Source: Oscillatoria princeps RMCB-10
Lineage (GTDB): Bacteria > Cyanobacteriota > Cyanobacteriia > Cyanobacteriales > Oscillatoriaceae
DNA: 64,000 nucleotides
NCBI GenBank assembly: GCA_019359235.1
Contig: JAHHHT010000036.1
Location: forward strand, 24,245 to 88,244
Direction of reading: 5' to 3'
Shown here: positions 32,918 through 50,039 of the stretch, one piece after another
Layout: every line of letters starts with the position of its first letter
Position numbering within the stretch: position 1 is the stretch's first letter
Notes under the pieces: model-generated
What the model saw: the letters and a program-made list of their open reading frames with translations, nothing else
Databases searched by the model: none
What the model was told of the DNA's origin: nothing
Program-made: the position numbers and the translations under genes

Positions 32918-33049
32918 AAGATATTCCCTTTGCCTACCTGCTTCCAGTTTACCGGCTGGGGGGGAAACCGGGAGATGTCACCTCCTGTAGAGACGCGACA
33001 CCGGCATTCGCACAGCAGGGGCGGTGAGCGGGGCCGCCGGCTCTAAATG

Positions 33050-33900
33050 TGCCGGTTGTGTGTGACAGAAATTTTCGCAAAAATTGCACAAATTTCTGGA
33101 TTTATGCTAACCTAAGGATAATGGAAAAGGTGCGGCAATATCAGGTCACTAATGGGCCACATTCCATCAACTTCCTTCCCCGACAATCGCCTCGCATTCC
33201 CGTGGTATTCCCCTTGTTCCCAGCATCTGTAGGGTGCGTTCCGCGTGAGTGTACTCCTTATTTGTGTGCGTAAATTGATAAGGCGGAACGCACCCCCCGG
33301 TTGCGGTGCGTTCCGCGTGCGAGCCGGCACCATTCTGCGTGCGAGAATGGATTACGCGGAACGCACCCTACTTTCTACAGCTAGTTCCCCGGCGATTAGC
33401 CAGGTTCCTGGCGATTGGAAAGATGTTGTTGGCGCTCTCCGTGAGGGGTTAGACCTACAGCTAGTTCCTCCGAGATTAGCTAGGTTCCTGGCGATTGGAA
33501 AGATGTTGTTGGCGTTCTCCCTGAGGGGTTAGACGTTCTCTCTGGGAAGTAAAGAACGGCGTTGCATTGGCGAAGCGAAATTTCGGGCGCAGTCGTAAAG
33601 ATCCGCGCCGCCAATGCTTCGCCCCTACATCGGATCTTGTGTAGGGGCGAAGCATGAGCGCGACTGTTTCTGCAATCGGTGAAAAGATTACATCCGCTCA
33701 TGCTTCGCCCTTCCCCCTAGCGCTAGCTACATATAACCTTTAAAAAACCAAGCCAAAAAGGGGGTATAGGGTGGGTAAGACCCTACATCAATTCGCCAAC
33801 AGCTTCTTTCCAATCGCCGGAGAACTAGCAAAATCGCCTGGGAACTAGCTGTAACAGCTGAATATGCAACGCCATCCTCAATGCGCTCAAATGCGCTCAT
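33050..33900. repeat. non-coding repeat island (TAGGGTGCGTTCCGC hairpins, 2 x ~75-bp tandem unit, GGGGCGAAGCATGAGCG hairpins)
   Basis: 33225-33370 carries inverted gtagggtgcgttccgc/gcggaacgcaccctac units. 33360-33540 carries two tandem copies of ctacagctagttcc..gattagc.aggttcctggcgattggaaagatgttgttggcg.tctcc.tgaggggttagac. 33590-33720 carries cgaagcatgagcg palindromes also found at 62290-62430. Confidence 0.75.
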
Positions 33901-36284
33901 GCAAACCACCGGCGAATTAACTCGACCTGGAAGCGGAAACCGTCACCGGCATGTTCAATGAGTTCGCGGCGCAAAAGCAGGTTGAGGGTGCTGTCGAGGC
34001 TGTCGGGAAACTGGCGGGAGAGAAATTGCCGGCTGGCTGTTGCGCGTTCCCCCTGTGCGGCGATGCGGCGCAATACGGCTAACCCACCGGCATCTATTTG
34101 GTTGCGTTCGATGTCGGAGAAAAAGAAACTGCCACTTTCTAAAGCACGCGGCACTGCAGCTTCTATATCGGCCAAGGTGGCAAACCGGCGCACCGAGGGA
34201 TCTTGCTCGTTTTTGAGAATCACAATCTCGTTGCAGAGGAGTTGCACCAAAAAGGGGTGATGGCGGGTTAAATCTAGAACTCGCTGAACCGCATCGGGTT
34301 CATAGCGCAGGGTAAAATCTTTGATGGGGCGCTCTATCAGCTGACGCGCTTCGGGTTCTCTCAGGTAGCTGATATGCACGACTTGCACGTTGATCAGGTA
34401 GCTCGCCCAGCGCTGAAATTCCTCTATCGTGTGGGAGCCGGCTAGCAGCACTTTGAAGCGGGGGCGGTGCTGGATTAAGTGGCGCAGCATTCCCAAAATG
34501 CGCTCTTCATCAAAGCGTCCTTTCCTGATGGCGCTGTCTAAAGCCTCGAATTCATCCAAGGCAAGCAGGGCGGTATTTTGTTCGAGTGTCTTTTCGACCT
34601 GATCTAGCCATTCGTCGAAGCCGGTGAAGGGATCTGCTGCTAGGGTTTCGCGGGGGAGGGGCGGCAGATTCAATTCGCTTTTTCGCTTGGCTGAGTTGAT
34701 CATGCCTTTAGCGAGGTTGTAGAGAAAACCTGCCGGGTCACTCGCCTGTGATGCCGGTCCTTGCAAGTCCACAAACATGGGGATGATACTGTTGGGGAGC
34801 AGGCGTCCGAGGTTGTTGAGAAGGGAGGTTTTGCCCATGCGCCGCTGACCGTAGAGTAGCAAAGGGGGGCGACGCCGGTCTAGCAGTAATTGCTCGATGC
34901 GCTTGCCGATCTCAGTGCCGCTGATATCAGCGGGTTTAACAAAGATTTGCTGCTGCTCATTCAGGGGAATGCCAGTGATGTAGGGGTTGTCAATCTCTTG
35001 GCGGAGTTCAGCTTCTTTTGCCAGTTCGGACACACGCTCGGCAAGAATTTGATGCCAGCGGAGGGCGATGGGCTGAAACCGAACCGCGTATTTGTCGCTG
35101 CTGCGGGTTAAGTCCTGCAACTTAACATATAAATGAGTTGCAACAGCGCTGAGCGCTAGACGCTGGTTATAAGCACTTTCCTGATTGAGAGCAGCGTCTG
35201 CATCCTCGCTGGTGCCACTGAAGATGCGCAGCACTGCGCGGGCTGGGCTTTGCAGTTCGCTAACAACCAGAGTGCGGTGAGCGTTACGGATGGCTTCCAC
35301 ATCCGAACAGCGTTCTAAACTCCATGCGTCCAGTTCAATTTGTGTCGGCTGTGCCGCCCAGCGCTGCCGGCTGGCGATCAGGTATTCGATGGCAGCTTTT
35401 CCCTCAGTTGGGTTGCGCTCCATCACTAAGAGGAGGTGCTTGTCCAAGTCATATAGGGGAATGCGCTGCCACTTATACCAAAAGGCAGAATGCCAGCGCA
35501 ACAGACTGGGTTGAGTGCCTGTACGTTTTTTGTCCAGTTCATACAGGAGGATATTCCATACGGCTAGGAAGGGATAGAGTACCGCTGGCAGCCACAAGTT
35601 TACAGTTACTGCCACGCCCGACGCCACGCCGAACGCCACGCCGAACGCCACGCCCCACACCACGCCCCACACCACGCCCCACACCACGCCGAACGCCACG
35701 CCGAACGCCACGCCCAACGCCACGCCCCACGCCACGCCGAACGCCACGCCGAACGCCACGCCGAACGCCACGCCCAACGCCACGCCCCACGCCACGTCCG
35801 ACGCCACGCCCCACGCCACGCCCCACGCCACGCCCGACACCACGCCCAACGCCACGCCCACCCCCACGCCCCACGCCACGCCCGACACTACGCCCAACGC
35901 CACGCCCAACTCCACGCCCAACGTCACGCCCCCCGCCACGCCCCCCGCCACGGCCCACGCCACACCCCACGCCAGGGCAGGAAAAATTTTGTCAGCTGAC
36001 TCGCCTAAGCCCCACAGTACCAATCCGAGAAGTGAGTTAACTAAGATAGGCGAGAGTAGATATCCTTGGAACAGCAGCCGCCACACAGCGGGGTTCCGCC
36101 AGCGCCCCTGTCTCATCAACAAAATCAGAGAGGAGTCAGGCTTCAAATTGGGGTGAATCCTGGTTAGGTGATTGCGGAAAGCTGTGGGGCGGAAGAAAAC
36201 CCAGAACAGCAGTTGCAGCGTGCCCAGAATTAGGTTGGGGTGCTGCTTAGGTGCGTGGGTGTAGGCGTTGCGCGGGACGTTCAT
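33897..36284 (-). CDS. three-domain protein: N-terminal glycine-zipper (GxxxG-repeat) membrane domain, conserved middle domain and C-terminal AAA-like (NPYITG...GKTSLL) ATPase
   Basis: 795 aa. Residues ~100-230 read ...GVAWGVALGVAFGVAFGVAFGVAWGV...GVVWGVVWGVVWGV... Then comes a middle domain shared with the 494-aa paralog. The C-terminal ATPase has NPYITGIPL, Walker A LLLYGQRRMGKTSLL and Walker B LALDEFEALD. Confidence 0.85.
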   Translation of the reverse strand: MNVPRNAYTHAPKQHPNLILGTLQLLFWVFFRPTAFRNHLTRIHPNLKPDSSLILLMRQGRWRNPAVWRLLFQGYLLSPILVNSLLGLVLWGLGESADKIFPALAWGVAWAVAGGVAGGVTLGVELGVALGVVSGVAWGVGVGVALGVVSGVAWGVAWGVASDVAWGVALGVAFGVAFGVAFGVAWGVALGVAFGVAFGVVWGVVWGVVWGVAFGVAFGVASGVAVTVNLWLPAVLYPFLAVWNILLYELDKKRTGTQPSLLRWHSAFWYKWQRIPLYDLDKHLLLVMERNPTEGKAAIEYLIASRQRWAAQPTQIELDAWSLERCSDVEAIRNAHRTLVVSELQSPARAVLRIFSGTSEDADAALNQESAYNQRLALSAVATHLYVKLQDLTRSSDKYAVRFQPIALRWHQILAERVSELAKEAELRQEIDNPYITGIPLNEQQQIFVKPADISGTEIGKRIEQLLLDRRRPPLLLYGQRRMGKTSLLNNLGRLLPNSIIPMFVDLQGPASQASDPAGFLYNLAKGMINSAKRKSELNLPPLPRETLAADPFTGFDEWLDQVEKTLEQNTALLALDEFEALDSAIRKGRFDEERILGMLRHLIQHRPRFKVLLAGSHTIEEFQRWASYLINVQVVHISYLREPEARQLIERPIKDFTLRYEPDAVQRVLDLTRHHPFLVQLLCNEIVILKNEQDPSVRRFATLADIEAAVPRALESGSFFFSDIERNQIDAGGLAVLRRIAAQGERATASRQFLSRQFPDSLDSTLNLLLRRELIEHAGDGFRFQVELIRRWFA
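35611..35973 (-). repeat. intragenic 12-nt minisatellite (about 30 copies of GCCACGCCSMAC) encoding the GV(A/V)(W/F) glycine-zipper units
   Basis: Near-perfect tandem 12-mers gccacgccgaac/gccacgccccac/gccacgcccaac lie on the plus strand inside the 795-aa gene. A more degenerate version lies at about 38950-39500 inside the 494-aa paralog. Confidence 0.9.
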
Positions 36285-36300
36285 GCTAATTCTTTACCTG

Positions 36301-37392
36301 TCACTCCAACAAATGTTTGAAGGGCTGTATCTGCTGTAACCCTTCTTTGCGCCAGCCGTCTCCAGTTTGCCCATGTTCAAAACTAACCCATCGCTCTTGA
36401 CAGAGGATTTGCACCAGAAGTGGCCATCGTCCGCTTTGGGTCAAAATCCACTCTACATCCTCATCTGGGAAGGTCATCGGCGAACCGGCAATCAACTCAC
36501 GCGCCTCTGCCTCTGTCAGCGGCCCCAAAGTCGCGCTATATCCGAAAATGTTGAAAAAGGGAGAACTGTGCCCGGTGTTGTGAGCCAGTTCAACCGGCGA
36601 TTCCGGCGCTGCCAGCACAAACGCCAGATTTCCACCGGCATAATTGGTTGCCCAAGATCGCAAGCACTCCCAGAACCCATCATCTAATTCTGGACAGCGT
36701 TGCAGTGCGACGCCTATCTCATCCAGCAGGATAACTGTGGGCGAGTGCAGCTTGTCGCCAACCGCATCCATGAAGCGATCCAAATCGCAGGGGTTGGGCA
36801 CCGGCACACCCAGGCACTCTAATATATAGCGCAGCAGCCCCTCCCGGCTGTGCCGGCGGGTATCTTGGAAGTCTGCGAAAATCCAGCGATAGCGTTCTGG
36901 ATGCGGCAGCCAGTCGGACTTTTGGCCAGGGCGCAACTCTGCCGGTGGGGTGGTGGTGATGTTTTTCAGGTAGTGCAGCAGGGAAGTCTTGCCGGTGCGC
37001 TTCTTGCCGATAATGGCGGCGTTTTGCAGCGGGTGGCGTTTCAGCAAGCCGAAAATGCGTTGAAGTTCGTAGTTGCGCCCAAAGAAGTGGCGAGGGTGGG
37101 TGATGGGGTTGCCGGTGATGAAGGGCGAGAGTTCCTCAATGGGTGCCGGTGGAGGTTGTGGATCTTCCTCTTCTTTACAGGCGATTTCTTGCCAGTCAAA
37201 CCCCAGTTTCTTGCTGAGTTCTACAAAATTCAGATAATCAACGGGTTGGCCATTGAGGAAGTTCTTGACGGTAGACAGAGATGGTTCTACTGCGTCAGCC
37301 AAAGCTTGCTGGCTGGGATAGCCGTTACGCTTGAGGGCCAATTTTACTTTATTGATGTACTCTGGGGCAACCCTGATCGACCGCGACATCAC
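36301..37392 (-). CDS. XRE-type HTH domain fused to AAA-like ATPase (paralog of the ATPase domain of the downstream 795-aa gene)
   Basis: 363 aa; N-terminal HTH QQALADAVEPSLSTVKNFLNGQPVDYLNFVELSKKLG, then SPFITGNPITHPRHFFGR...AIIGKKRTGKTSLLHYL (Walker A) and VILLDEIG (Walker B). The C-terminal WPLLVQILCQE parallels HPFLVQLLCNE in the 795-aa protein. The stop lies 17 nt before the next start. Confidence 0.85.
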   Translation of the reverse strand: MMSRSIRVAPEYINKVKLALKRNGYPSQQALADAVEPSLSTVKNFLNGQPVDYLNFVELSKKLGFDWQEIACKEEEDPQPPPAPIEELSPFITGNPITHPRHFFGRNYELQRIFGLLKRHPLQNAAIIGKKRTGKTSLLHYLKNITTTPPAELRPGQKSDWLPHPERYRWIFADFQDTRRHSREGLLRYILECLGVPVPNPCDLDRFMDAVGDKLHSPTVILLDEIGVALQRCPELDDGFWECLRSWATNYAGGNLAFVLAAPESPVELAHNTGHSSPFFNIFGYSATLGPLTEAEARELIAGSPMTFPDEDVEWILTQSGRWPLLVQILCQERWVSFEHGQTGDGWRKEGLQQIQPFKHLLE

Positions 37393-37545
37393 TGTTCCCA
37401 GGAAGGACTATCCGATTATAGAGCTTTTTTCCAGCCCAACCACAAGTCATCCCTAAGTCATCTCAAAGTCACCTGTTTCCCACCCCGCATCTCAACCTGC
37501 GCCAGGTTTAGATGGAATTGTAGAGTTCAAACCGACTAAAACGCC

Positions 37546-37866
37546 ATGTTGAATGAAACCCAAAACACCAACCAGACGTTACCCTCTACTTCTGAACCTG
37601 ATGGCGCTGTTCTGGACATGGAGCGAGAGTTCATGGAAGAACGCTTTCGTCAAGCTCGTCTCAGCTTCAACCTGACTCTCGGACTGACAGCAGTGAGTGC
37701 TTTCATCAGTGTTGTGGGTGTCGGACTTTTGTTTGCGGGGAAAGTTCCAGAAGGAAGCGTCACGACAGCTGGGGGGTTGAGTTCAAATCTTGTCAGCGTG
37801 CGCTTATTAAGGCTGACTAAGGAAACCAATGACCGGCTGGACAAAATGGCTCACGAGAGAATGTAG
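37546..37866 (+). CDS. small hypothetical protein with one predicted transmembrane helix
   Basis: 106-aa ORF divergent from the HTH-ATPase gene. It has a hydrophobic segment LTLGLTAVSAFISVVGVGLLFAG and is followed by GAAACCCGGTTTC palindromes. The call is tentative. Confidence 0.3.
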   Translation: MLNETQNTNQTLPSTSEPDGAVLDMEREFMEERFRQARLSFNLTLGLTAVSAFISVVGVGLLFAGKVPEGSVTTAGGLSSNLVSVRLLRLTKETNDRLDKMAHERM

Positions 37867-38290
37867 GGTGGGTTCCGCGCTATCTATTATCGCACATAAT
37901 GGGTTGGGTGAGAAACCGGGTTTCTTGAAGAAACCCGGTTTATTGGGGGCAGGGGGGTGGGTTCCGCCTTATGGATTTCCGCACACAAATCAGGGGTGCG
38001 GTCAGGCGGAACCCACCCTACTTACTATTGTAACCTGTATCGCGTGCCGGTGGCAAGAAAGCCGATTATTATAGCAATAGACAGTCAGTTTAGGACACTG
38101 GGACACGAGATACAAGGTATAGGCGTAGGGCAGGCGTCTCGCCTGCCCTTAAGGTCTCTGGGACAGGCGAGACGCCTGTCCTACGTCCTAACCTAAGTGG
38201 CTGCTGCTATATAGATTTTAGGAGGCAGAGCCTCCTTATTGGCGCTCCCAACCTTGGCGTCCTTGGCGTCTTGGCGGTTCCTCATTAATC
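37861..38290. repeat. intergenic cluster of dispersed repeats (GGGTGGGTTCCGC hairpin pair, GAAACCCGGTTTC palindromes, GGACAGGCG palindromes, CTTGGCG heptamers)
   Basis: Inverted gtagggtgggttccgc (37865) pairs with ggcggaacccaccctac (38005). The other elements are agaaaccgggtttcttgaagaaacccggttt (37921), gggcaggcgtctcgcctgccc / ggacaggcgagacgcctgtcc (38130-38190) and ccttggcgtccttggcgtcttggcggtt (38250). Confidence 0.8.
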
Positions 38291-38317
38291 CCAAATCACT
38301 CCCAAATTTCCTGCCAC

Positions 38318-39802
38318 TCATTCAGCGCCTGTGATGTGGGGGCTGCCGGCTTGTTGTTCAACTTCTGCCGCCAGTTCGCGGACACAACCGGCTACAATGT
38401 CATACCAGCGAAGGGCAATGGGGTAAAAACGAAGGGCGTCTTTATCGCCACAGGCGGTTAACTCCCGCAAGAAGTTATCCAGATTCTGCGCGACAGCGCT
38501 GAGGGCTAGCAGCCGGTTAAAGGCACTCTCCTGACTCACACCGGCATCTACTTCTTGGCTAATCTGGCCAAAGCTGATCAGCCAAATACCGGCAGGGCTT
38601 TCTAAATCACCGGCACCCAATTTTTGGTGTGCGTTACTGATATCTCGCACGCCGGCACAGTTTTCTAAACTCCTGGCGTCTATTTCAATCTGCGCCGCCA
38701 GCGCCGCCCAGCGCTGCCGGCTGGATTTCAGGTAGTTAATTGCGGCTTTGGCTTCATCGGGATTGCGCTCCAGTATCAAAATCAGGTGCTTGTCTAATTT
38801 AGGGAAAGGCAAAAACTGCCACTCATGCCAGAATGCAGAGTGCCGGTGCAACAAACTGAATTGACTCCCTGCAAATCGTTTGTCCAGTTGATAGAGGAGG
38901 ATATTCCACACTGCTAACAGAGGATAAAATACCACCGGCAGCCAATAGTTGACAGACACTCCCAGAGCGAACGCCACCCCCGACGCCACCCCCGACGACA
39001 GGCCAAATGCTAGACCCAAGGTGACAATCGACGCCAAGCGCCACCCGACGCGCCACGCGATGTCGGGCGAGACGCCGGGAACCACGCCCGACACCACGCC
39101 CAACACCACGCCCAAGGTGACGCCGGACATCACGCCCAACACCACGCCCAAGGCAAGACCGGATGCCAAACTGGACACCAGACCGGAGGCCACGTGAAAC
39201 GCGACGCCCAGCCCGACGCCAAACACCACGCCCAATCCGACGCCCCACCCCACACTCCGCTTGGCGCTAAACCCCGGACTCAAGGTGACGCCCAGGACTG
39301 CGCCCGACGCCGCGCCCAACCCGACGCCCCACCCGACGCCCCACGCGAACCCCAACGCCAAATTGAGCGCCACGCCCAGCGCCGCAGTCAGCCCGACGCC
39401 CAAGGTGACAGCTAGGGCCACGCCTGAGGCCACACCCCACTGCACGCCCGACGCCACCCACGATGTCAGCCCCCACCGCACGCCCGACGCCACGCGCCAG
39501 AAAATGATTTCTTTTGACTCGCCCAGTACCGACAGCACTAAACCCAGGATTGAAAATGCCAGGAAAGGTAAGATCAAATATTCCTGTATTAGCAGTCGCC
39601 ACAAAGCGCAGTTGCGCCACCGCAAACGGGTGCCCTGTTGCCCATTGGGGGTTAAGGCGGGGTCAATGCGGGTGAGGTGATTGCGCCATGCTGAGGGGCG
39701 GAAGAAAAGCCAGAACAGCAGTTGCAAACTGCCCAGAATAATATTGGGGTGCTGTTCGGGCGCATCTGTGTAGCTGTTGGGTGGAACAGTGGGAGAGGTC
39801 AT
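38318..39802 (-). CDS. paralog of the 795-aa gene with glycine-zipper membrane domain and middle domain but no ATPase domain
   Basis: 494 aa. The N-terminal 95 aa are highly similar (NIILGSLQLLFWLFFRPSAWRNHLTRI vs NLILGTLQLLFWVFFRPTAFRNHLTRI). The GxxxG-rich region is degenerate. The middle domain is conserved (WLPVVFYPLLAVWNILLYQLDKR...). The protein ends at ...PHITGAE, exactly where the ATPase starts in the paralog (NPYITGIPL). Confidence 0.8.
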   Translation of the reverse strand: MTSPTVPPNSYTDAPEQHPNIILGSLQLLFWLFFRPSAWRNHLTRIDPALTPNGQQGTRLRWRNCALWRLLIQEYLILPFLAFSILGLVLSVLGESKEIIFWRVASGVRWGLTSWVASGVQWGVASGVALAVTLGVGLTAALGVALNLALGFAWGVGWGVGLGAASGAVLGVTLSPGFSAKRSVGWGVGLGVVFGVGLGVAFHVASGLVSSLASGLALGVVLGVMSGVTLGVVLGVVSGVVPGVSPDIAWRVGWRLASIVTLGLAFGLSSGVASGVAFALGVSVNYWLPVVFYPLLAVWNILLYQLDKRFAGSQFSLLHRHSAFWHEWQFLPFPKLDKHLILILERNPDEAKAAINYLKSSRQRWAALAAQIEIDARSLENCAGVRDISNAHQKLGAGDLESPAGIWLISFGQISQEVDAGVSQESAFNRLLALSAVAQNLDNFLRELTACGDKDALRFYPIALRWYDIVAGCVRELAAEVEQQAGSPHITGAE

Positions 39803-39914
39803 TTCTCTTCTGGTTGATTCACCTTAATAATGAACCGCCAAGAGGGTAGGGTGCGTTCCGCTAAGCGGAACGCACCCTACTCAATTTTAAAGGAGGGAAA
39901 GGGAGAAAGGGCTG

Positions 39915-41738
39915 CTAAGCGCTGACAAAGGAAACGGCGACGCGAAATCCGAAGCGGTTATTGCGAATTTCCGGCACTACTCTGCAGCGGAAAGCGGAAC
40001 GGCAATCCCTGGGGTTGCTGAACCAAGAACCCCCGCGCAGCAACCGGCGATATTGATTTCCACCGGCATCCCAAACACCCCCATCAGCTAGCGCACCTGT
40101 GTAATTATCATGCCACGGATCGGCGCACCACTCCCAGACATTCCCGTGGGTGTCGTACAAACCAAAAGTGTTGGCTGGAAAACTCCCCACATCCGCTGTC
40201 TGTTTGCTATAGATTCCTTTGGGTTCAGAAGCGTAAATATAGTGACCGTGATAATTAGCTAATTCAGTCGTAACTGTCTCGCCAAAGTGGAAAGGTGTAG
40301 TGCAGGCGTCCTCGCCTGTACCTATTTTATAGGCGTCCTCGCCCGCACACGCGCGACAGGCGTATTCCCATTCCGCCTCGCTGGGTAAGCGGTAGTTGCG
40401 CCCGGTTGCTTGGGACAGTCGCGCACAAAATTCGGCAGCCTCGTTCCAGGATACATTCTCCACCGGCCTGTTTGCGCCTTTGAAATAAGACGGATCGGGA
40501 TTTAAATCCAGGTACACCTTGGGTAAAGCTGCGACAGCTTTCCACTGCGCCTGAGTTATGGGATATTTCCCCATAAAAAAGGGTTGCACTTTTACCAGGT
40601 GCTGCGGGCTTTCCTCATTATATCGCCCTGACTCAGTTTTTGGGGAACCCATCAGGAAAGTTCCCCCCGGAATTGACACCATTTCCAGGTTCAACCCGCC
40701 TCCCAAGTCATGGGCAAAGTATTCCGCTTGCCGGCGCGTGCGGTTGATTTCTCGCCCGTGCGCGTCTACCGTGATTGCGTCGAAGGCAAAAAACTGCAAG
40801 GGTGTTTTGCCTGAGGGGGGAGAGGTGCTAACCGAAATGGGCAATCCCGACGTGACGAATCCAATCCCGACAAAACCGGCTGCTTTAAAAAGTTGCCGGC
40901 GCGTTGGGGAATCCTCTTTCATCAGGGAGGAAACAGCTTGCAGCGCTTCCACTGCAGACGGGTAGCGCAGGCGAGAGTCACAGCGCACCATTGTGTCTAA
41001 AATCTTTGCCAGCTGGGGGCTAACTTGCACTTTGTTGCGCCAGATAATGTCACCCGTCTGGGGATTTTCTGGCAATCGCCGGGGAAAGATGCCGGTGAGC
41101 GCTTGTATTGCAGTCATTCCCAGCGCGTAAACATCGCTGCTAAACTGGGGTTTGCCCTTCGCTTGCTCACCCGGCATGTATCCGGGGGTGCCAATCCCAA
41201 CGGTCAAACTCGTCTGAGCTGGCGCATTTGCCACTTGGGTGCAGACTTGCTTAATTGCGGCAAAGTCTATCAAGACGATTTTACCATCTTGGCGGCGTCG
41301 GATTAAGTTTGCCGGTTTGATATCGCGGTGGATGACACCTTCTTTATGCGCGTGAGAAAGGACTGTCAGCACATCCAGCAAAAAGGCAATCGTCCGTTCT
41401 TCAGTCCACCGGCATCCCGGTTTGATTTCCGCAGACAGGTTCTCTCCTTCTATAAATTCTCGCACGAGATAGAACTCTTGATTCTCCTCGAAGTGAGCCA
41501 AAAATCCGGGAATTTGGTCGTGTTCGCCCAATTTCTGGAGGAGTTTAGCTTCCGTGTCGAATAGGGTTCTGGCAATCTCCAACGCGGACAGATTGTTGGA
41601 CAGGGGTTTGAGCTGTTTGACGACGCACGCAGGACTATCTGGTAACTGGGTGTCTGAGGCGAGGAAAGTTGACCCAAATCCTCCGCCTCCCAAGTGTTTG
41701 ACGATCTTATAGCGCCCCGCAAGGGTTGTTCCCAACAT
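39915..41738 (-). CDS. Ser/Thr protein kinase fused to C-terminal FGE-sulfatase (formylglycine-generating-enzyme-like) domain
   Basis: 607 aa; kinase subdomains GGGGFGSTF...VVKQL, HRDIKPANL, DFAAIK. The C-terminal FGE fold has RLPSEAEWEYACRA, HGNVWEWCADPWH and RGGSWFSNPRDCRSAFR. Confidence 0.9.
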   Translation of the reverse strand: MLGTTLAGRYKIVKHLGGGGFGSTFLASDTQLPDSPACVVKQLKPLSNNLSALEIARTLFDTEAKLLQKLGEHDQIPGFLAHFEENQEFYLVREFIEGENLSAEIKPGCRWTEERTIAFLLDVLTVLSHAHKEGVIHRDIKPANLIRRRQDGKIVLIDFAAIKQVCTQVANAPAQTSLTVGIGTPGYMPGEQAKGKPQFSSDVYALGMTAIQALTGIFPRRLPENPQTGDIIWRNKVQVSPQLAKILDTMVRCDSRLRYPSAVEALQAVSSLMKEDSPTRRQLFKAAGFVGIGFVTSGLPISVSTSPPSGKTPLQFFAFDAITVDAHGREINRTRRQAEYFAHDLGGGLNLEMVSIPGGTFLMGSPKTESGRYNEESPQHLVKVQPFFMGKYPITQAQWKAVAALPKVYLDLNPDPSYFKGANRPVENVSWNEAAEFCARLSQATGRNYRLPSEAEWEYACRACAGEDAYKIGTGEDACTTPFHFGETVTTELANYHGHYIYASEPKGIYSKQTADVGSFPANTFGLYDTHGNVWEWCADPWHDNYTGALADGGVWDAGGNQYRRLLRGGSWFSNPRDCRSAFRCRVVPEIRNNRFGFRVAVSFVSA

Positions 41739-42019: not shown

Positions 42020-43873
42020 TTAAGGAGTCCTCGCCAAAGAAAAGGCTACGCGAAAACCGCAGTTATTCTTGCGATGGTCTGGCCCAACCCCGCTACGGTA
42101 AGCCGAACGGCAACGCCAGGGTATGTTCTCCCAAGAAGCTCCAGGCGCCACAAAATGTTTTAGATCGGCTTCCCAGACACTCCCATCAGACGGCGCACCA
42201 ATATAATTACCGTGCCACGGATCGGCGCACAATTCCCAGACATTCCCGTGCATCTCGTATAGCCCAAAGGCGTTCGGCGGAAACCTGCCCACATCTGTTG
42301 TCCCTCCGTTATTGTGTAAATAGTTAGCCAAATCGGGGGTAATCGTCTCGCCGAAGTGGAATGGAGTTGTGGTTCCTGCGCGACAGGCGTATTCCCACTC
42401 CGCCTCGCTGGGGAGTCGGTAGTTGCGCCCGGTTGCTTGGAAAAGTCGGGCACAAAATTCCACCATCTCGTTCCAGGATACTTGCTCCACCGGCCTATTT
42501 GCGCCTTTGAAATAAGAAGGTTCGGGATTTAAGTCGCGGCTGACTTTGGGTAAAGAGGCGACAGCTTTCCACTGCGCCTGAGTTACAGTATATTTGCCCA
42601 TAAAAAAGGGTTTCACTGTTACCCAGTGCTGTGGTTTTTCACGGTTTTCGTCGTCTTCGCTTGGCGGGGAACCCATCAGAAAGGTTCCCCCCGGAATCGA
42701 CACCATTTCTAAAATCACTCCGTCTCCTACGTCATGGGGAAAGAATTCAGCTTGCTGGCGCGTGCGGTTGATTTCTCGCCCCCCCGCGTCTACTGTGATT
42801 ACATCGAAGGTAAAAGTTTGCAAAGGGGAAACCTCAACAATTGTGGAAGAGGGAGAAGTCGTGAAAACCTGACGGGCGAATACCGACGCCACAAATCCCC
42901 CACCGGCAAATCCCGCCAGCTTGAAAACTTGCCGGCGCGTCAGGGGGGAATTCGGTTTTGTCAAAGAAGAAACCGCTTGCAGCGCCTCAGATGCTGACGA
43001 GTAGCGCTGGCGGTAATCATAGCGCACCATTTTATCTAAAATGTTTGCCAACTTCGGACTAACTTGCGCCCTGTTGCGCCAGAGAATTTCACCCGTCTGC
43101 GGATCTTCTGGCAATTGCCTCGGGGGGATGCCGGTGAGGGCTTGAATTGCCGTGATTCCCAGGGCGTAAACATCGCTGCTCAACTGGGGTTTGCCCTGAG
43201 CTTGCTCACTCGGCATGTATCCGGGGGTGCCAATCCCAACTGTCAAACTCGTCTGACTCTGCTGCGCATTGGGCACCTGCGTGCTGACTTGCTTAATTGC
43301 CCCAAAGTCTATCAAGATGATTTTCCCATCTTGGCGGCGTCGGATTAAGTTTGCCGGTTTGATATCGCGGTGGATGACACCCTCCTGATGGGCGTAAGAA
43401 AGGGCTGTCAGCACCTCCAGCAAAAAGGCAATCACCCGTTCTTCTGCCCACTTGCATCCCGGTTTGATTTCCTCGCACAGACTGTCGCCCTCGATGAATT
43501 GCTGCACTAGATAGAATTCTTGATTTTCCTCAAAGTGAGCCAAAAGGCTGGGAATTTGGTCGTGTTCGCCCAATTTCTGGAGAACCCTAGCTTCGGTGTT
43601 GAATAACCGTCTGGCAATCTTCAGGGTAGACGGATCGTTCGACTGGGGTTTGAGCTGTTTAACGACGCACACAGGATTGTCTGGTAGCTGCGTGTCTGAG
43701 GCTAGGAAAGTTTGGCCAAATCCCCCGCCTCCCAGATATTTGACGATTTTATAGTGCCTCTTAAGGGTTCGTCCCAACATGGCTTTGATGCAGTGTCTGG
43801 CAAGTTTTTCTCCAGCATACAGCCTTTTGCCACAAATGTCAATCCCCTTTTTGGCAAAAGTTTTCACCCTCAC
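42020..43873 (-). CDS. Ser/Thr protein kinase::FGE-sulfatase fusion, tandem paralog (likely start at internal Met, coordinate 43780)
   Basis: 617-aa ORF. The sequence from MLGRTLKRHYKIVKYLGGGGFGQTF onward is collinear with the downstream paralog (about 70% identity by eye). The 31 aa before it are probably not translated. Confidence 0.9.
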   Translation of the reverse strand: MRVKTFAKKGIDICGKRLYAGEKLARHCIKAMLGRTLKRHYKIVKYLGGGGFGQTFLASDTQLPDNPVCVVKQLKPQSNDPSTLKIARRLFNTEARVLQKLGEHDQIPSLLAHFEENQEFYLVQQFIEGDSLCEEIKPGCKWAEERVIAFLLEVLTALSYAHQEGVIHRDIKPANLIRRRQDGKIILIDFGAIKQVSTQVPNAQQSQTSLTVGIGTPGYMPSEQAQGKPQLSSDVYALGITAIQALTGIPPRQLPEDPQTGEILWRNRAQVSPKLANILDKMVRYDYRQRYSSASEALQAVSSLTKPNSPLTRRQVFKLAGFAGGGFVASVFARQVFTTSPSSTIVEVSPLQTFTFDVITVDAGGREINRTRQQAEFFPHDVGDGVILEMVSIPGGTFLMGSPPSEDDENREKPQHWVTVKPFFMGKYTVTQAQWKAVASLPKVSRDLNPEPSYFKGANRPVEQVSWNEMVEFCARLFQATGRNYRLPSEAEWEYACRAGTTTPFHFGETITPDLANYLHNNGGTTDVGRFPPNAFGLYEMHGNVWELCADPWHGNYIGAPSDGSVWEADLKHFVAPGASWENIPWRCRSAYRSGVGPDHRKNNCGFRVAFSLARTP

Positions 43874-44005: not shown

Positions 44006-45649
44006 CTACAGGCTCTTAATGCTCAAATCCACATCTGCCGGGGTAAAATATAACTGGGCGCTGCCCTCGCTCAAGGCGGCAATGGCATCCTGTTTCCGCA
44101 AAGTATTAAAAATCGCCAGCTTGTCCGATTTTGACATGCCATTACCCAACCCGTCAAAGAACGCCCTGACGCGAATTGCCTCCGCCTCACCGGCAGTTAG
44201 CGCTTCGGTTTGCGCGTGCTCCCGGCGCAAGTCCAGCAGCTGTCCCTTCTGCCGCTCAACTTCAATCTCCCCCTCTATCTCCTTAAGTTTAACATCATTA
44301 TCGCCCTCCTGTTTCTGCAGCCGGTTCAGCCGGTTCGTCGTCTCCTGAATAATCTCTATCAAAATCCGCTGCGTGTCCGGATCTTTGCAAGCGACTGAGC
44401 GCACTTCCACCGCATGAAGCGCCACCCCACGATCGGCATAAAAGCTGTCCTCCACCCCCAGCACCGCTTGTCTGACTATGGCATTAAACCCCGCCAGAAA
44501 TCTTTCCAGCGATACCTGCGATACGGACTGAATAATCAGGCTGCGGACGTGGGCGCAAATCGCGCCGCTGGTATCGTCTGTCGCCTGCACCATCGCCGCC
44601 ACATCCACAATCTGCCAGAAGAAGGTCAAGCCGATAATTAATTCTACATTATCCTGCGTTCGCGTTTCAAATTCGTACCACATAAACTTGGGTCGCCCGT
44701 CAATGTGGGTGAAGATGAGATTTTTCTCGTCTTTGTGCAGCCCGCTGGCCCACCGGAATTCCACCAGCTCCTCATACGGCTGCAAAAAGAAAGACCGTTC
44801 GGCGTCAGTTCCCTGTTTTATGCTATAATCGCCAAAGCGGTCTTTGACGACGACCGTTTCGTGATTCTCCAGCAAGATGCGCCGGCGCACTTCTACGATT
44901 TTTTGATTCGCCTCCGGAGAGAAAACCTGCGGTTCTGTTATCAATTCTAGGGTGCCGGTTTGCGTGTCTCGCACCAGCACTGCCGTGTGTTCGTCAATAT
45001 TGACCCCTTCCCCGATGCTGCCTAAAATCTCTTCCGCCGGATTGAGGTAGAAACTCCTCTCGCCCCGCTCAACGCGAATCATGCCGGTGCTTTTATCAAT
45101 CACCTTGACATATTGATTTTGCTGCAGTAAAATAGGCTTGCGGAGTTCGACAATTTCCTGATTGGCAGCTGGAATGAACACTTGGGGTTGGGAAATCAGC
45201 TGCAGCTGGCCGGTGGAAATATCTCGCACCAGCACCGCTGTTTGCTCATCAATATTGACTCCCTCCCGCACCGGCTCCAAAATCTCTTCAGTGGGGTTGA
45301 GACAGACACTGCGATCGCCCCTTTCCACCCGAATCGCGCCGGTGCGCTTGTCAATCAGCCGGATGTACTGGTTGCTCTTCAGGGGAATGGCGGACCGCTG
45401 TTCCAGGATTTCCTCACTCGCCGCCGGGAAGAACAGCTTGGGGCCAAATTCGTTGCGCAACTCGCCGGTGAGGGTGTCGCGCAGGCGCAGGTAGTCCGTA
45501 GGGCCAAGGGTTTTGGCCTTGCGGCGCTGCACCCGCCACCAGGGCTGGGAGTAAAACACGGCGGGTCCATTCACTGTCCACCGGCGCGTGAAGCCCTCGA
45601 CGATCAGCTGTTCGTCTTCTTTGAGATAATAGATCCAGGGCAAAAACAT
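44006..45649 (-). CDS. major-vault-protein (MVP) repeat / SPFH (band-7)-like domain protein
   Basis: 547 aa. It has three tandem repeats of about 55 aa (QYIRLIDKRTGAIRVERGDRSVCLNPTEEILE.. / QYVKVIDKSTGMIRVERGERSFYLNPAEEILG.. / ETVVVKDRFGDYSIKQG..ERSFFLQPYEEL), as in MVP shoulder repeats. These are followed by an SPFH-like core and a coiled-coil tail. Confidence 0.65.
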   Translation of the reverse strand: MFLPWIYYLKEDEQLIVEGFTRRWTVNGPAVFYSQPWWRVQRRKAKTLGPTDYLRLRDTLTGELRNEFGPKLFFPAASEEILEQRSAIPLKSNQYIRLIDKRTGAIRVERGDRSVCLNPTEEILEPVREGVNIDEQTAVLVRDISTGQLQLISQPQVFIPAANQEIVELRKPILLQQNQYVKVIDKSTGMIRVERGERSFYLNPAEEILGSIGEGVNIDEHTAVLVRDTQTGTLELITEPQVFSPEANQKIVEVRRRILLENHETVVVKDRFGDYSIKQGTDAERSFFLQPYEELVEFRWASGLHKDEKNLIFTHIDGRPKFMWYEFETRTQDNVELIIGLTFFWQIVDVAAMVQATDDTSGAICAHVRSLIIQSVSQVSLERFLAGFNAIVRQAVLGVEDSFYADRGVALHAVEVRSVACKDPDTQRILIEIIQETTNRLNRLQKQEGDNDVKLKEIEGEIEVERQKGQLLDLRREHAQTEALTAGEAEAIRVRAFFDGLGNGMSKSDKLAIFNTLRKQDAIAALSEGSAQLYFTPADVDLSIKSL

Positions 45650-47491: not shown

Positions 47492-48535
47492 TCAGGACAA
47501 ACGCTGGCACAGCAGCACGCCAAACCACCGCTGCGGGTCAGTCCAAACTCGCACCGGCACCAACCCTCGCCCTTCCAGGTACTCCTGCATCTCATCCAAA
47601 TCGAACTTGCGCGAAATTTCTGTTAAAATCGTCTCCCCGGCACCCAACTCAACACTTAAATCCAGAGCCCGTAAATAAACCGTTTGCTCTCCCAAACTCC
47701 GCAAGTGCATCTCAATTTGGCGCTGAACTTCATTATAAAAAGCCCAGTGCTCAAATTGCGAAGTATCGAAATTTCCCTCAAAGCGCCAGTTCAGGTGGCG
47801 CAGCATATTCAGATTAAACTCAGACGTCACCCCTTGAGCGTCACTGTAAGCCGGCTCCAGCACCTCCTTTGATTTGTGCAAGTCAATCCCCAGCAGGAAA
47901 AAATCGCCCGCCTGCAGAGCGCCGGCAATTTGCGAGAAAAACACATCGCACTCCTGGCGGTTCAGATTCCCCAAAGTGCTGCCGAGAAAACAAATCATCC
48001 GCGCCGCCAGGGGCGAAGGAGTCAGTTTTGACAGCGCCAGCTCGTAAGTGCTCACCAACCCGTGAACCTCCAGCGACGGATAATCCGCCAGCAGTTCGCG
48101 TGCGCTACTTTCCAGGATGCCGGCACTGACATCAATTGGCAGATAGCGCAGCGGGCAGCCCAACTCGCTGTAAGCGTCCAAAATAATCCGAGTTTTCGTC
48201 GAACTTCCGCTGCCCAGTTCCGCGATTTCGCACTCGCCTGTCAGTTCGGCAATCTCGCCGGCACACCGGCGCAAAATCGCCGCCTCCGTGCGCGTCAAGT
48301 AATATTCCGGCAACTCGCAAATCCGCTCGAACAGCATCGAGCCCCGGTCATCGTAAAAATAGCGCGGCGGCAGAGATTTCGGACTCTCACTAAGCCCGCT
48401 GACGATATCGCTGCCCAGGGTCAATTCTGTTTCCAAAAGCGCAGTCGGACTGAGCAGATGCTCTATGCGCAAACGTTCCTCAGTGGTGCCCGGTTTGCGG
48501 ATACCGGTAGAAGTTAAATTGTTTGGCGATTGCAT
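47492..48535 (-). CDS. egtD: L-histidine N-alpha-methyltransferase (ergothioneine biosynthesis)
   Basis: 347 aa; EgtD hallmark YFYDDRGSMLFERICELPEYYLTRTE plus the SAM-binding GSGSSTKTRIIL. Confidence 0.9.
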   Translation of the reverse strand: MQSPNNLTSTGIRKPGTTEERLRIEHLLSPTALLETELTLGSDIVSGLSESPKSLPPRYFYDDRGSMLFERICELPEYYLTRTEAAILRRCAGEIAELTGECEIAELGSGSSTKTRIILDAYSELGCPLRYLPIDVSAGILESSARELLADYPSLEVHGLVSTYELALSKLTPSPLAARMICFLGSTLGNLNRQECDVFFSQIAGALQAGDFFLLGIDLHKSKEVLEPAYSDAQGVTSEFNLNMLRHLNWRFEGNFDTSQFEHWAFYNEVQRQIEMHLRSLGEQTVYLRALDLSVELGAGETILTEISRKFDLDEMQEYLEGRGLVPVRVWTDPQRWFGVLLCQRLS

Positions 48536-48643: not shown

Positions 48644-48720
48644 TACAGAAACCCGGTTTCTTGGAGAAACCGGGTTTCTTGGCTGGTTTCTTGGCAGTTT
48701 CTTGGCAGCCCTCCTACCTA
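48644..48720. repeat. GAAACCCGGTTTC palindromes followed by GGTTTCTTGGC tandem units at the egtB 3' end
   Basis: cagaaacccggtttcttggagaaaccgggtttcttggctggtttcttggcagtttcttggcag. Confidence 0.8.
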
Positions 48721-50039
48721 GCGCAGCGAAAACCGGCAAAAAGCTGCCTCACCCAAGGCTGATACCAGTTGCGGAAGCTCCCTCGCAGCGCCCTGGGGCG
48801 AGTCGCCCAGCTCCCCCCTTTGAGAACCCGGTGCTGCCGGTCAAAATACGCCTGGGAATAACCGGCATAGGGGTAGAGCTCAAACCCCTCATACCCCTCA
48901 AACCAGCTGGATGTCCACTCCCAAACATTCCCCAAAGCGTCGCACACGCCCCAAAAGCTCGCCCCCGCAGGGAAAGCACCGGCTGGCGTCGTCTGAGCGT
49001 ACAGATTGTCGTGATTGCACCGGCTGGCGTCGGGAGGCTCTTCCCCCCAGGGGTAGGTGCGCCGGCTTCCAGCACTCGCATCCCAGCAGACGGCTTTTTC
49101 CCACTCCGCCTCCGCCGGCAGTCGCTTGCCGGCAAACCGCGCAAAGGCGTCCGCTTCGTACCAGCTCACCCCGCACACGGGATGGCTGTCGAAACGCGAG
49201 TCATCCGACCAATATAAAGGCTGCCTTATCGAATTATTTTGCCGCCACTCCCAGCCCTCGCTTGACCAAAAGCTGGAATTGTGATATCCTCCCGCCGCGA
49301 TAAACTGCCGGTACTGCCCGCAAGTGACGGGATAGCGGTCAATCCAGTAGGTGTCCAAATAGTGCCGGTGAGCCGGTCGCTCGTTGTCGAGGGCGTCGGT
49401 GGAGTCGGAACCCCGCTCAAACTCGCCTGCTGGGATTTCAATCATTTCGCTAAGGGCACCGGGCACTGGGCGTGGGGCATCGGGTGCGAGAATTCTCCCC
49501 TGTTGCGAAGAAATCCCCTGCCAGCCGGCCAGCCTGCTCAGGAAAGTAACCGTTTCGCAGTGCTGGCTTTCGTGCTGGACAATAAAGCTCCAAAGGCGTT
49601 CTTGCTCCTGAACCGGCGCGATTTCCAGATAGTCCAGCACTTTTTCGCGAACCGTGTCCTGATAGTGGCGCAGCTCAGCCAGATTTGGCAGACGCACCCG
49701 TTCCGCTTTGGGCAAGCCATCCGCTGCCAACAGCCTGTGATATTCTGGAAACACCGGCGGATAGCCGGCGCTGCGCTGCAGCAACCAAAGCGCCTCCGTA
49801 TAGGCGATGTGCCCCAAATGCCAGCCGGGGGGGCTGAAGTCGGGATGGGCTTGCTGGCGGAAGGTGGCGTCATCCATGCCTTCAAACAGTTTTAGGGTGC
49901 CCGTGCGGCACTCCTGCAAGGCGTTGCGGATGGCGTCTCTAGAGTTGATAGATTTGAATGTCAAGGTTCTCTCCCACACTGATAATACTCTGTTCTGGGC
50001 AGCGGTTCCAGCTGCCGGCGAACAAAGGTTCAGAAGCAA
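48714..50039 (-). CDS. egtB: ergothioneine sulfoxide synthase (DinB_2 + FGE-sulfatase domains)
   Basis: 441 aa; N-terminal DinB-like [13 protein letters not shown]...HESQHCE iron-binding motifs and a C-terminal FGE fold ([24 protein letters not shown]). The first ~33 codons overlap the egtC 3' end. Confidence 0.9.

Follow-up and report, generated by a model that had tools for sequence, protein, structure and literature searches.

Two adjacent minus-strand genes, here called A and B, in a 64,000-nucleotide stretch of DNA from the cyanobacterium Oscillatoria princeps RMCB-10 (the window, by which we mean that whole stretch) appear to encode a paired signaling module of STAND (NLR-like) nucleoside triphosphatases (NTPases), in which A would be a constant membrane member and B a soluble partner with a swappable N-terminal head. 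We put the probability of this reading at roughly 55%. The two proteins carry homologous NTPase modules with intact catalytic motifs, their genes are kept side by side in genomes and metagenomes, and the N-terminal domain of B is exchanged from locus to locus for others that include enzymatic, cell-death-associated and DNA-binding types.

Two paralogous NTPases in one operon

The original prediction for this region, an earlier reading made by a model from the letters and a list of open reading frames (ORFs), named three minus-strand ORFs, A, B and the related gene C, and the ORF listing places all three at the coordinates then given. B lies upstream of A, with 16 nt from the B stop to the A start rather than the 17 nt first reported. 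The parts of the two genes are listed below (aa, amino acids; TM, transmembrane; HTH, helix-turn-helix; pLDDT, predicted local distance difference test).

33897..36284, minus strand: gene A, STAND-like NTPase of 795 aa with predicted membrane anchorage, constant member of the pair
36003..36284, minus strand: A residues 1-94, conserved N-terminal segment and first TM-like helix (residues 75-94), from alignment and hydropathy
35611..35974, minus strand: 12-nt coding minisatellite, glycine-zipper tract of A (about residues 104-225), from Tandem Repeats Finder (TRF)
34980..35600, minus strand: A residues 229-435, with NLWLPAVLYPFLAVWNILLY as the final hydrophobic helix, then the conserved cytoplasmic middle domain, predicted all-helical (model pLDDT about 85-95)
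33900..34979, minus strand: A residues 436-795, NTPase module, from motifs and fold matches
34824-34850, minus strand: A Walker A, GQRRMGKTS
34545-34568, minus strand: A Walker B, LLALDEFE
34233-34259, minus strand: A GxP-like motif, HPFLVQLLC
within 33900..34979, minus strand: A C-terminal predicted winged helix, ending in ELIRRWFA
36301..37392, minus strand: gene B, putative HTH and paralogous STAND-like NTPase, 363 aa, GTG start, variable-head member
about 37183-37392, minus strand: B putative HTH
37111-37128, minus strand: B SPFITG
37063-37086, minus strand: B pre-Walker motif, FFGRNYEL
36982-37008, minus strand: B Walker A, GKKRTGKTS
36712-36732, minus strand: B Walker B, ILLDEIG
36400-36426, minus strand: B WPLLVQILC

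Window B is 100% identical to an Oscillatoria princeps RMCB-10 protein. Compared directly by BLASTP, A and B show weak similarity (27% identity over 93 aa, E 1e-4). Alignment of family profiles with hhalign, using 22 A-family and 24 B-family sequences, gave a probability of 97.7% (E 1.8e-12) over 291 columns, A 360-688 against B 14-335, and the aligned region spans the (S/N)P(F/Y)ITG motif, Walker A, Walker B and the HPFLVQLLC/WPLLVQILC motif. The modules that A, B and C had been claimed to share thus reflect true paralogy, as judged by hhalign for A and B and by BLASTP for A and C (see below).

STAND NTPases, as Leipe and colleagues are said to have defined them in 2004, have a Walker A motif of the form GxxxxGK[ST], a Walker B motif of the form hhhhD[DE] and an hhGRxxE helix ahead of the P-loop, and reportedly also a helical domain with a GxP-type motif that is followed by a winged helix. 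Both window proteins have undamaged Walker A and Walker B motifs, which are invariant across both family alignments, the NTPase of A being near-invariant across orders, and both members of the pair keep the two motifs in most pairs elsewhere. B carries a pre-Walker helix of the hhGRxxE type, FFGRNYEL, and HPFLVQLLC in A and WPLLVQILC in B lie at the position expected for the GxP-type motif. The AlphaFold2 model of A (mean pLDDT 73) ends in a helix/strand unit resembling a winged helix; B stops before any winged helix, and its model (mean pLDDT 66, with a poor P-loop region) was used only to judge the HTH region and to place the fold broadly.

Among the Pfam matches to the window NTPases, AAA_22 on A (E 1.4e-7) alone lies above its threshold, and the Pfam context of both proteins is AAA_22, AAA_16, ATPase_2 and nSTAND1. 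The nSTAND1 family (PF20703) scores 22.7 bits on A and 14.4 bits on B, both under the gathering threshold of 27.1 bits; precomputed PF20703 matches exist for many homologues, and some homologues are named nSTAND1 by NCBI. The family proposed for these ATPases in the original prediction, PF14516 (AAA_35), turned out to fit poorly, since the Pfam scan gave no match on A and a weak one on B (15.0 bits, E 0.011, under a gathering threshold of 27 bits), with weak matches in 4 of 24 B orthologues, and the best Pfam matches are AAA_22 and AAA_16. Foldseek searches with the A model returned plant NLRs, ORC/Cdc6, RuvB, MalT and Avs3, and the A and B models also matched the archaeal ATPase_2 proteins 2qen and 2fna (E 1e-5 to 1e-3); the whole-model search of A was dominated by NTPase matches. 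Scans of A, B, C and a neighboring gene for a small 2-TM protein (described below) against NCBIfam and PADLOC produced P-loop-level matches only (E about 1e-3, none significant), and querying the PDB sequences with the A-family profile brought up nothing but noise, an aquaporin through the hydrophobic tract and RFC through the P-loop. From these models and motifs A and B are best described as STAND-like NTPases, their fold matches falling among STAND and ORC-like AAA+ proteins alike.

The search for homologues of A found 1930 proteins, and a scan of species genomes found 295 relatives, the best 80 of which were used for locus analysis (loci are numbered with the prefix L). These 80 loci belong almost entirely to filamentous cyanobacteria, among them Nostoc, Calothrix, Microcoleus, Tychonema, Brasilonema and Scytonema, plus four or five Anaerolineae, and mostly there is one copy of the pair per genome. 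Linkage of the HTH-ATPase gene to the TM-ATPase gene, which the original prediction had set as a check, is both tight and wide: in 70 of the 80 genome loci A is immediately preceded, on its own strand, by a B orthologue of 55-75% identity, in most of the others the upstream DNA is absent, and most metagenome loci show the same arrangement. The metagenome scan, made with distant A-type proteins, found 246 loci, of which 80 were examined; 58 of these contain a B-type NTPase ORF (300-575 bits against a hidden Markov model of the B NTPase), scored directly upstream of A in 51 and overlapping it stop to start by 4 bp in 12.

The gap between B and A varies from 18 to 3156 nt among the genome loci. 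Many Nostoc genomes have inserts in it, small genes of mobile appearance that were named from their N-terminal sequences only: a 203-aa ORF, a GIY-YIG-like gene, or a PIN-like gene paired with an antitoxin-like one. Loci with inserts include L005, L008, L011, L012, L022, L031, L062, L075, L076 and L078. B and A remain paired despite the inserted genes. On scaffold KB217480.1 of Calothrix sp. PCC 7103 the entire B-A region seems to be present twice, since loci L038 and L039 agree fully in match statistics and in ORF pattern. A single, distant plasmid match to A was recorded, in Acinetobacter ursingii (NZ_MH220285.1, 199623-200891); it covers the NTPase module only (A 414-795, 26.6% identity) and sits under a feature annotated as an N-6 DNA methylase.

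An exchangeable head on B and a variable, predicted membrane tract in A

The N-terminal extension of B ranges from about 40 to 535 residues across loci, and Pfam recognizes the following heads in it.

TIR_2 (E 1e-22 to 1e-25): L059, L081, L083, L090, L116
Mrr_cat nuclease: L084
Ser/Thr kinase (Pkinase): L088, L092, L149
SARP-type BTAD: L096, L099, L101, L127, L136, L150, with Trans_reg_C also in L127
HTH with EAD1: L118
TCAD9: L135
CHAT: L155
XRE HTH: L131 and cyanobacterial loci

Several further loci have B heads that could be given no assignment. The commonest heads are transcriptional (HTH, SARP), and wherever the head of B changes A keeps its membrane region, middle domain and NTPase. One slot filled by many domains is regarded as the signature of the effector or output position in conflict systems of multicellular bacteria (PMC7159879, PMC8195603), and the N terminus of B shows just this many-domains-in-one-slot pattern of the conflict systems of Kaur et al. 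Because the head domains vary on B and A is constant, B appears to deliver the output, and A, the unchanging member, presumably does the sensing. The original prediction had cast the glycine zipper of A as the effector and B as its regulator; with the variable, effector-type slot found on B, these roles are probably reversed.

That B of the window carries an XRE-type HTH is suggested by its orthologues and by its model. Window B itself matched no Pfam HTH family at E<=0.1, and a PDB search with its HTH region alone returned nothing. Among B orthologues of 68-75% identity, however, HTH_24 matched 12 of 24 (best 5.4e-6), HTH_3 matched 7 of 24 (2.8e-6), HTH_19 matched 6 of 24 and Phage_CI_repr 2 of 24, and residues 10-70 of the B model form four to five short helices with pLDDT 83-91.

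In the other member of the pair, the N-terminal segment of A carries the motif NAYT.AP.QHPNLILG.LQLLFW.FFRP.A.RNH, which is retained in distant homologues of roughly 40% identity. The long GxxxG array that had been described in A is present: 23 of the 30 glycine-to-glycine spacings in residues 95-235 equal 4 (against 17 of 38 in gene C), and a stretch of 134 residues consists to about 90% of G, V, A, L, F and W, forming a continuous hydrophobic tract of about 135 aa. All hydrophobic segments of A lie before residue 250, and Walker A follows at residue 479. At the level of DNA the zipper consists of 30.3 tandem copies, 87% identical, of a 12-nt repeat (35611-35974 by TRF), whose coding unit GGC GTG GCG NNN is in frame and encodes (G-V-A-x)n. 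Arrays with a period that is a multiple of 12 nt occur in 56 of the 72 A-homologue loci scanned, in 2-49 copies, built from the GGC-GTG-GCG-NNN unit or from 24- to 96-nt multiples. The codon unit and the repeat character of the tract are common to different genera, and the copy numbers are very different.

Across 68 A homologues the zipper tract measures 50-283 residues, with a glycine fraction of 0.08-0.29 and a GxxxG regularity of 0-91%, and is about 80% hydrophobic or glycine throughout; it has shrunk to 50 aa in homologue P0100. In distant homologues of about 900-960 aa its place is taken by a region of 350-450 aa with 6-12 hydrophobic segments and charged loops. No Pfam glycine-zipper family matched A or C at E<=0.1, and residues 130-230 of the A model are helical with low confidence (pLDDT 33-64 by 10-residue block). 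Because the tract is a hypervariable minisatellite that is replaced by a polytopic domain in distant homologues, we conclude from these sequence comparisons that the property most probably conserved is membrane anchorage, and that the regular zipper would be a slippage-prone, lineage-specific elaboration rather than a conserved pore module. The earlier appeal to the zipper as the hallmark of a pore former is not supported, the tract being a variable minisatellite with no Pfam glycine-zipper match. The middle domain, by comparison, always lies between the membrane region and the NTPase among the full-length matches examined, and its profile finds 495 clusters (50% identity) at E<=1e-3. In cyanobacteria the tract of A offers a natural case of a coding minisatellite within a membrane domain.

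Phased repeats, a divergent small gene and gene C

Three further features lie beside the pair.

37444..37471, minus strand: three TGACTT direct repeats in 11-nt phase, candidate operator, in the intergenic region between B and the 2-TM gene
37546..37866, plus strand: 2-TM gene with a CyanoTRADDas_TM domain (PF20712), 106 aa, divergent from B
38318..39802, minus strand: gene C, an A paralogue of 494 aa truncated before the NTPase

The divergent 2-TM gene and the phased repeats had been overlooked in the original prediction. The intergenic region that separates the gene from B is 153 nt long, and in it TGACTT occurs three times in exact 11-nt phase (37444-37471), followed by CTCTATAAT and adjoined by a TATAAT-like (-10-like) box. 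The triple is the only match in the window, and none of 100 shuffles produced one. Upstream of B in 58 loci, the spacings of motif pairs peak at 11-12, 22-23 and 33-34 nt on the B strand, with essentially no peaks on the opposite strand. Strict triple repeats and the PF20712 gene occur together (15 of 20 loci versus 5 of 38, Fisher p 4e-6), and Nostoc loci that have a different small ORF show, by eye, a degenerate 11-nt-periodic array abutting TATAAT. The TGACTT repeats are a candidate operator for the HTH of B; repeats one helical turn apart suit an oligomerizing regulator. Phased direct repeats beside a -10-like box also recall the sites of SARP proteins and MalT, a resemblance that we treat as a lead only. 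A scan for sigma-70 promoters and terminators gave matches not above shuffled expectation and no canonical promoter upstream of B; it also marked a terminator-like hairpin at 33765-33787, downstream of A. No RNA family matched in an Rfam search of 33000-40500.

The product of the 2-TM gene matches PF20712, the cyanobacterial TRADD-N associated 2-TM domain, over the full length of the profile (1-68 of 68) with 73.4 bits (E 1.6e-20; gathering threshold 24.3), and its 19 homologues found by word search are all short stand-alone proteins of 83-149 aa. Of 66 genome loci, 19 have a PF20712 gene that is divergent from B. In 26 Nostoc loci this position holds an unrelated 78-aa 1-TM ORF, which was considered as a diverged PF20712 protein and ruled out (hhalign probability 1%), and in two Anaerolineae loci it holds another small 2-TM ORF.

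Gene C had been described as adjacent to A and B, but it is set apart from B by the 2-TM gene (37546..37866, plus strand) and by nested inverted repeats that take up about 450 nt. A and C are 50% identical by BLASTP (A 2-438, C 5-492, E 8e-132), and C comprises the N-terminal segment, a degenerate glycine-rich hydrophobic tract and the middle domain, with no NTPase. Its end, SPHITGAE*, aligns with NPYITG of A at the start of the NTPase module, in agreement with the earlier statement that C stops where the ATPase would begin. C was found only in two Oscillatoria genomes, that of the window and that of Oscillatoria sp. PCC 10802 (L001), whose locus is syntenic with the window, with a partial copy in a Rivularia locus (L069). 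The ratio of nonsynonymous to synonymous divergence (dN/dS) between C and its L001 orthologue is 0.23, which suggests that C is maintained in the Oscillatoria lineage; decay into a pseudogene is ruled out by this ratio and by the conservation of the frame and end point in PCC 10802. Being lineage-specific and absent from the conserved pair elsewhere, C does not belong to the system in which it had been included. In the same comparison with L001, A and B show dS of 0.06-0.09, lower than gene C and the neighboring kinase (about 0.20), and dN/dS of 0.4-0.7, higher than in those two genes. The space between C and the 2-TM gene is filled by nested inverted repeats (37853-38194), with 34-nt arms at 38115-38194 and 26-nt arms at 37853-38031, and also holds perfect palindromes of 14-15 nt; the repeats resemble miniature inverted-repeat transposable elements (MITEs) and have no Rfam match.

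Beyond C lie two tandem paralogous genes for Ser/Thr kinases fused to FGE-sulfatase (FGS) domains (39915-41738 and 42020-43873, both on the minus strand). The FGE-sulfatase domain has been linked to diversity-generating retroelements in cyanobacteria (PMC7159879, PMC8195603). These genes are neighbors of the pair only in the two Oscillatoria genomes and were ruled out as members of the system. They are followed on the minus strand by a gene for a 547-aa protein (44006-45649) with major-vault-protein (MVP) repeat, MVP shoulder and SPFH/Band 7 matches, and by a Methyltransf_33 histidine-specific methyltransferase gene (47492-48535) beside one for a DinB_2 and FGE-sulfatase protein (48714-50039), two genes that we take to resemble the EgtD/EgtB ergothioneine pair.

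Known systems, proposed mechanism and alternatives

Literature searches on nSTAND1, on glycine zippers combined with STAND proteins, on two-gene TM STAND systems and on Oscillatoria princeps yielded no description of the A-B pair, for which the original prediction likewise knew of no characterized system with this exact architecture; the passages searched in a 2026 Nature survey of STAND proteins do not mention the pair, and it is not among the systems listed in PMC7159879 or PMC8195603. The STAND/NLR conflict systems, including nSTAND1 (PMC7159879, PMC8195603), resemble it in their P-loop NTPase, helical domain and winged helix, in the pre-Walker FFGRxxEL seen in B, in an N-terminal slot for TIR, restriction endonuclease, kinase, caspase-like CHAT, EAD or HTH domains, and in their hosts, filamentous cyanobacteria and Chloroflexota, some homologues being annotated as nSTAND1. 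The pair differs from them in that it has no C-terminal repeat sensor, consists of two active paralogous NTPases as a fixed gene pair, and has in A a polytopic or glycine-zipper membrane domain with a family-specific middle domain; for nSTAND1 in particular, the window proteins score under the gathering threshold. The two-gene nSTAND2 operon (PMC8195603) likewise has a STAND core in both products and variable effectors on one, and its products are predicted to form a hetero-multimer. nSTAND2 is, however, mobile, with NTP-binding motifs eroded in one partner and GT4 or HEPN as its usual effectors (PMC8195603), whereas here the Walker motifs are kept in both partners, one of which, A, is predicted to lie in the membrane, the heads are different and the cyanobacterial pair is chromosomally fixed. 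Pfam nSTAND2 matches to the pair are marginal only.

Regulators of the AfsR/SARP type and MalT are like B in joining a DNA-binding head to a STAND NTPase; MalT is among the Foldseek matches, and some B orthologues have a SARP head (Trans_reg_C with BTAD). Unlike AfsR and MalT, B has no TPR or sensor domains and is always paired with a membrane paralogue, and its DNA binding is a prediction. The plant NLRs and resistosomes (ZAR1, NRC2/3/4, Sr35) are the best structural matches for both NTPase modules, and plant paired NLRs may be likened to A and B in their working logic, in which one of two kindred NOD proteins senses, the other executes, and oligomerization clusters the N-terminal domains at a membrane. 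The NTPase fold, at 12-15% identity, is all they have in common, which makes this an analogy and not membership, and plant NLRs are soluble proteins with LRR sensors that insert into the membrane on activation, unlike A, a predicted integral membrane protein. Glycine-zipper membrane proteins (GxxxGxxxG) share with A and C long GxxxG runs in a hydrophobic context; the array of A differs in being a hypervariable minisatellite that some homologues dispense with, and pore formation by it is hypothetical. KAP NTPases, in which the TM helices are inserted within the NTPase domain, also combine a P-loop NTPase with TM segments, but KAP identity was ruled out for A, whose hydrophobic segments lie outside the NTPase domain. 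The combination of P-loop NTPase and TM segments has been implicated in conflict systems (PMC8195603). An integral-membrane STAND protein together with an active paralogue whose head is swappable is a combination that none of the closest described systems has.

If the paired-module reading is right, the hydrophobic N terminus of A and its cytoplasmic middle domain would sense a cue at the level of the membrane or envelope, which would license nucleotide-dependent oligomerization of the A NTPase module. B, co-translated from the shared operon, would be recruited through NTPase-NTPase contacts, and its N-terminal heads would be activated by clustering. Elsewhere, clustered TIR, nuclease, kinase or CHAT heads might act directly. 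The head of B in the window being an HTH, its output would be transcriptional: oligomeric B, with its Cro/C1-type HTH, may bind the 11-bp-phased TGACTT repeats and so control the divergent 2-TM gene, its own operon or both. Gene C, an NTPase-less copy of the sensor half of A, may modulate A.

Several observations weigh against this paired-module reading. The A-family consensus for the pre-Walker motif is IFTGRTDI, and in the A protein of the window the site reads IFVKPADISGTE (IFVKPADISG); a 5-residue insertion (34932-34946, A residues 447-451) falls in the motif, and the conserved Gly-Arg before the P-loop is therefore lost. The Microcoleus protein P0002 carries the same variant. No C-terminal repeat sensor (TPR, WD40 or LRR) was seen in A or B with Pfam or in the models, and the sensing step is therefore a guess, such superstructure-forming repeats being typical of STAND receptors though not universal. 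Membrane insertion of A is predicted from Kyte-Doolittle hydropathy and from a model segment of low confidence, and physical contact between A and B is a proposal. Five metagenome loci whose upstream DNA was inspected (L108, L113, L122, L125 and L128) show no B-type ORF, so A can stand alone. The only fusion found, in P0399 (1111 aa, from the representative library), joins two A-type modules and not B to A; it consists of an A-type NTPase with winged helix, TPR, TM segments, a middle domain and a second A-type NTPase, and is the only family protein with TPR. In cyanobacteria the pair is very highly conserved (mean column identity 58% for A and 79% for B), and in Nostocales it occupies a stable syntenic chromosomal site beside housekeeping genes, with aldehyde-dehydrogenase-like and TPP-enzyme-like ORFs upstream and 360-aa and aminotransferase-like ORFs downstream (named from sequence, with no domain search). 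Searches of 72,556 plasmids, of 50,697 records of phages and of 2.9 million contigs of viruses gave no close relatives of the pair, and PADLOC gave no significant match for it. Such conservation, synteny and absence from plasmid and phage collections are atypical for defense genes and fit a fixed core signaling module at least as well as a mobile defense island, and for that reason we can do no more than infer an immune role.

The logic of conflict systems that the original prediction saw in this locus is accordingly borne out on one side, by the TIR, Mrr, kinase, SARP/BTAD, EAD1, TCAD9 and CHAT heads on B, and not on the other, since the Nostocales synteny, the plasmid, phage and viral-contig searches and PADLOC point neither to mobility or a patchy distribution nor to a defense-island context. 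It is nevertheless possible, and we offer this tentatively, that A and B form a widespread, hitherto undescribed "paired NLR" immune system, in which the membrane STAND protein A detects invasion or damage at the envelope and activates B with its freely exchanged head, and which in filamentous cyanobacteria has become a fixed core pair whose sensor tract diversifies through an in-frame 12-nt minisatellite.

Other explanations attribute different roles to the same genes. The zipper of A might itself be a membrane-permeabilizing effector, assembled into a pore by the NTPase as in a resistosome, with B as an HTH-NTPase regulator of the operon and abortive infection as the outcome. The long GxxxG array and the continuous hydrophobic tract of about 135 aa suit such a pore, as do its N-terminal position, usually that of the effector in STAND proteins, and the conflict-system features of the family context; the best Foldseek matches include pore-forming plant NLR resistosomes, though by way of the NTPase module, and A-type genes sometimes occur without B, so that A can perhaps act alone. 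But a tract that is a minisatellite, varies in length (50-283 aa), glycine fraction (0.08-0.29) and GxxxG regularity (0-0.91), gives way to 6-12 ordinary hydrophobic segments in distant homologues and matches no Pfam glycine-zipper family is not conserved, and it is B that carries the classical effectors (TIR, nuclease, CHAT, kinase), with A unchanged, which marks B as the output arm. We therefore think a pore-forming A unlikely. We are similarly doubtful that the pair is a domesticated housekeeping system of filamentous cyanobacteria that takes no part in conflict with phages or other invaders, for example a sensor of envelope, septum or membrane stress (A) with a transcription factor (B), its likeness to conflict systems reflecting ancestry only. 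The very high conservation that A and B show in Oscillatoriales and Nostocales, a mostly single copy at a conserved Nostocales chromosomal site, the lack of close plasmid, phage and viral relatives and of a significant PADLOC match, the prevalence of transcriptional heads (HTH, SARP) and the conserved promoter-proximal repeat array all favor it, and the cyanobacterial HTH version may indeed be a domesticated core signaling pair. Against it, TIR, Mrr, CHAT, EAD1 and TCAD9 heads elsewhere mark conflict or cell-death systems (PMC7159879, PMC8195603), the adjoining small gene belongs to a TRADD-N-associated family, toxin-antitoxin and GIY-YIG cassettes accumulate within the operon, and the membrane tract is hypervariable.

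That the likeness of A, B and C is an incidental local duplication without functional coupling, the copies decaying and C a pseudogene fragment, is highly improbable. C does lack an NTPase, has MITE-like inverted repeats alongside and is confined to one lineage, but for A and B this reading is contradicted by their linkage, which holds in hundreds of loci from two phyla and often goes as far as a shared stop-start overlap, C is open in both Oscillatoria genomes with a dN/dS of 0.23, and the catalytic motifs are intact in both NTPases.

Immunity in animals, plants and bacteria relies centrally on STAND/NLR receptors, and to our knowledge the bacterial members characterized so far are single soluble proteins with C-terminal sensors. 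If A and B work as proposed, bacteria would have a division into sensor and helper such as plants have in their paired NLRs, together with a route by which such proteins could detect what happens at the membrane. The pair is widespread: the searches found it in 295 species genomes and at 246 metagenome loci, and gave 495 clusters (50% identity). Should it prove instead to be a housekeeping envelope-signaling pair, it would still be a core, uncharacterized regulator of filamentous cyanobacteria.

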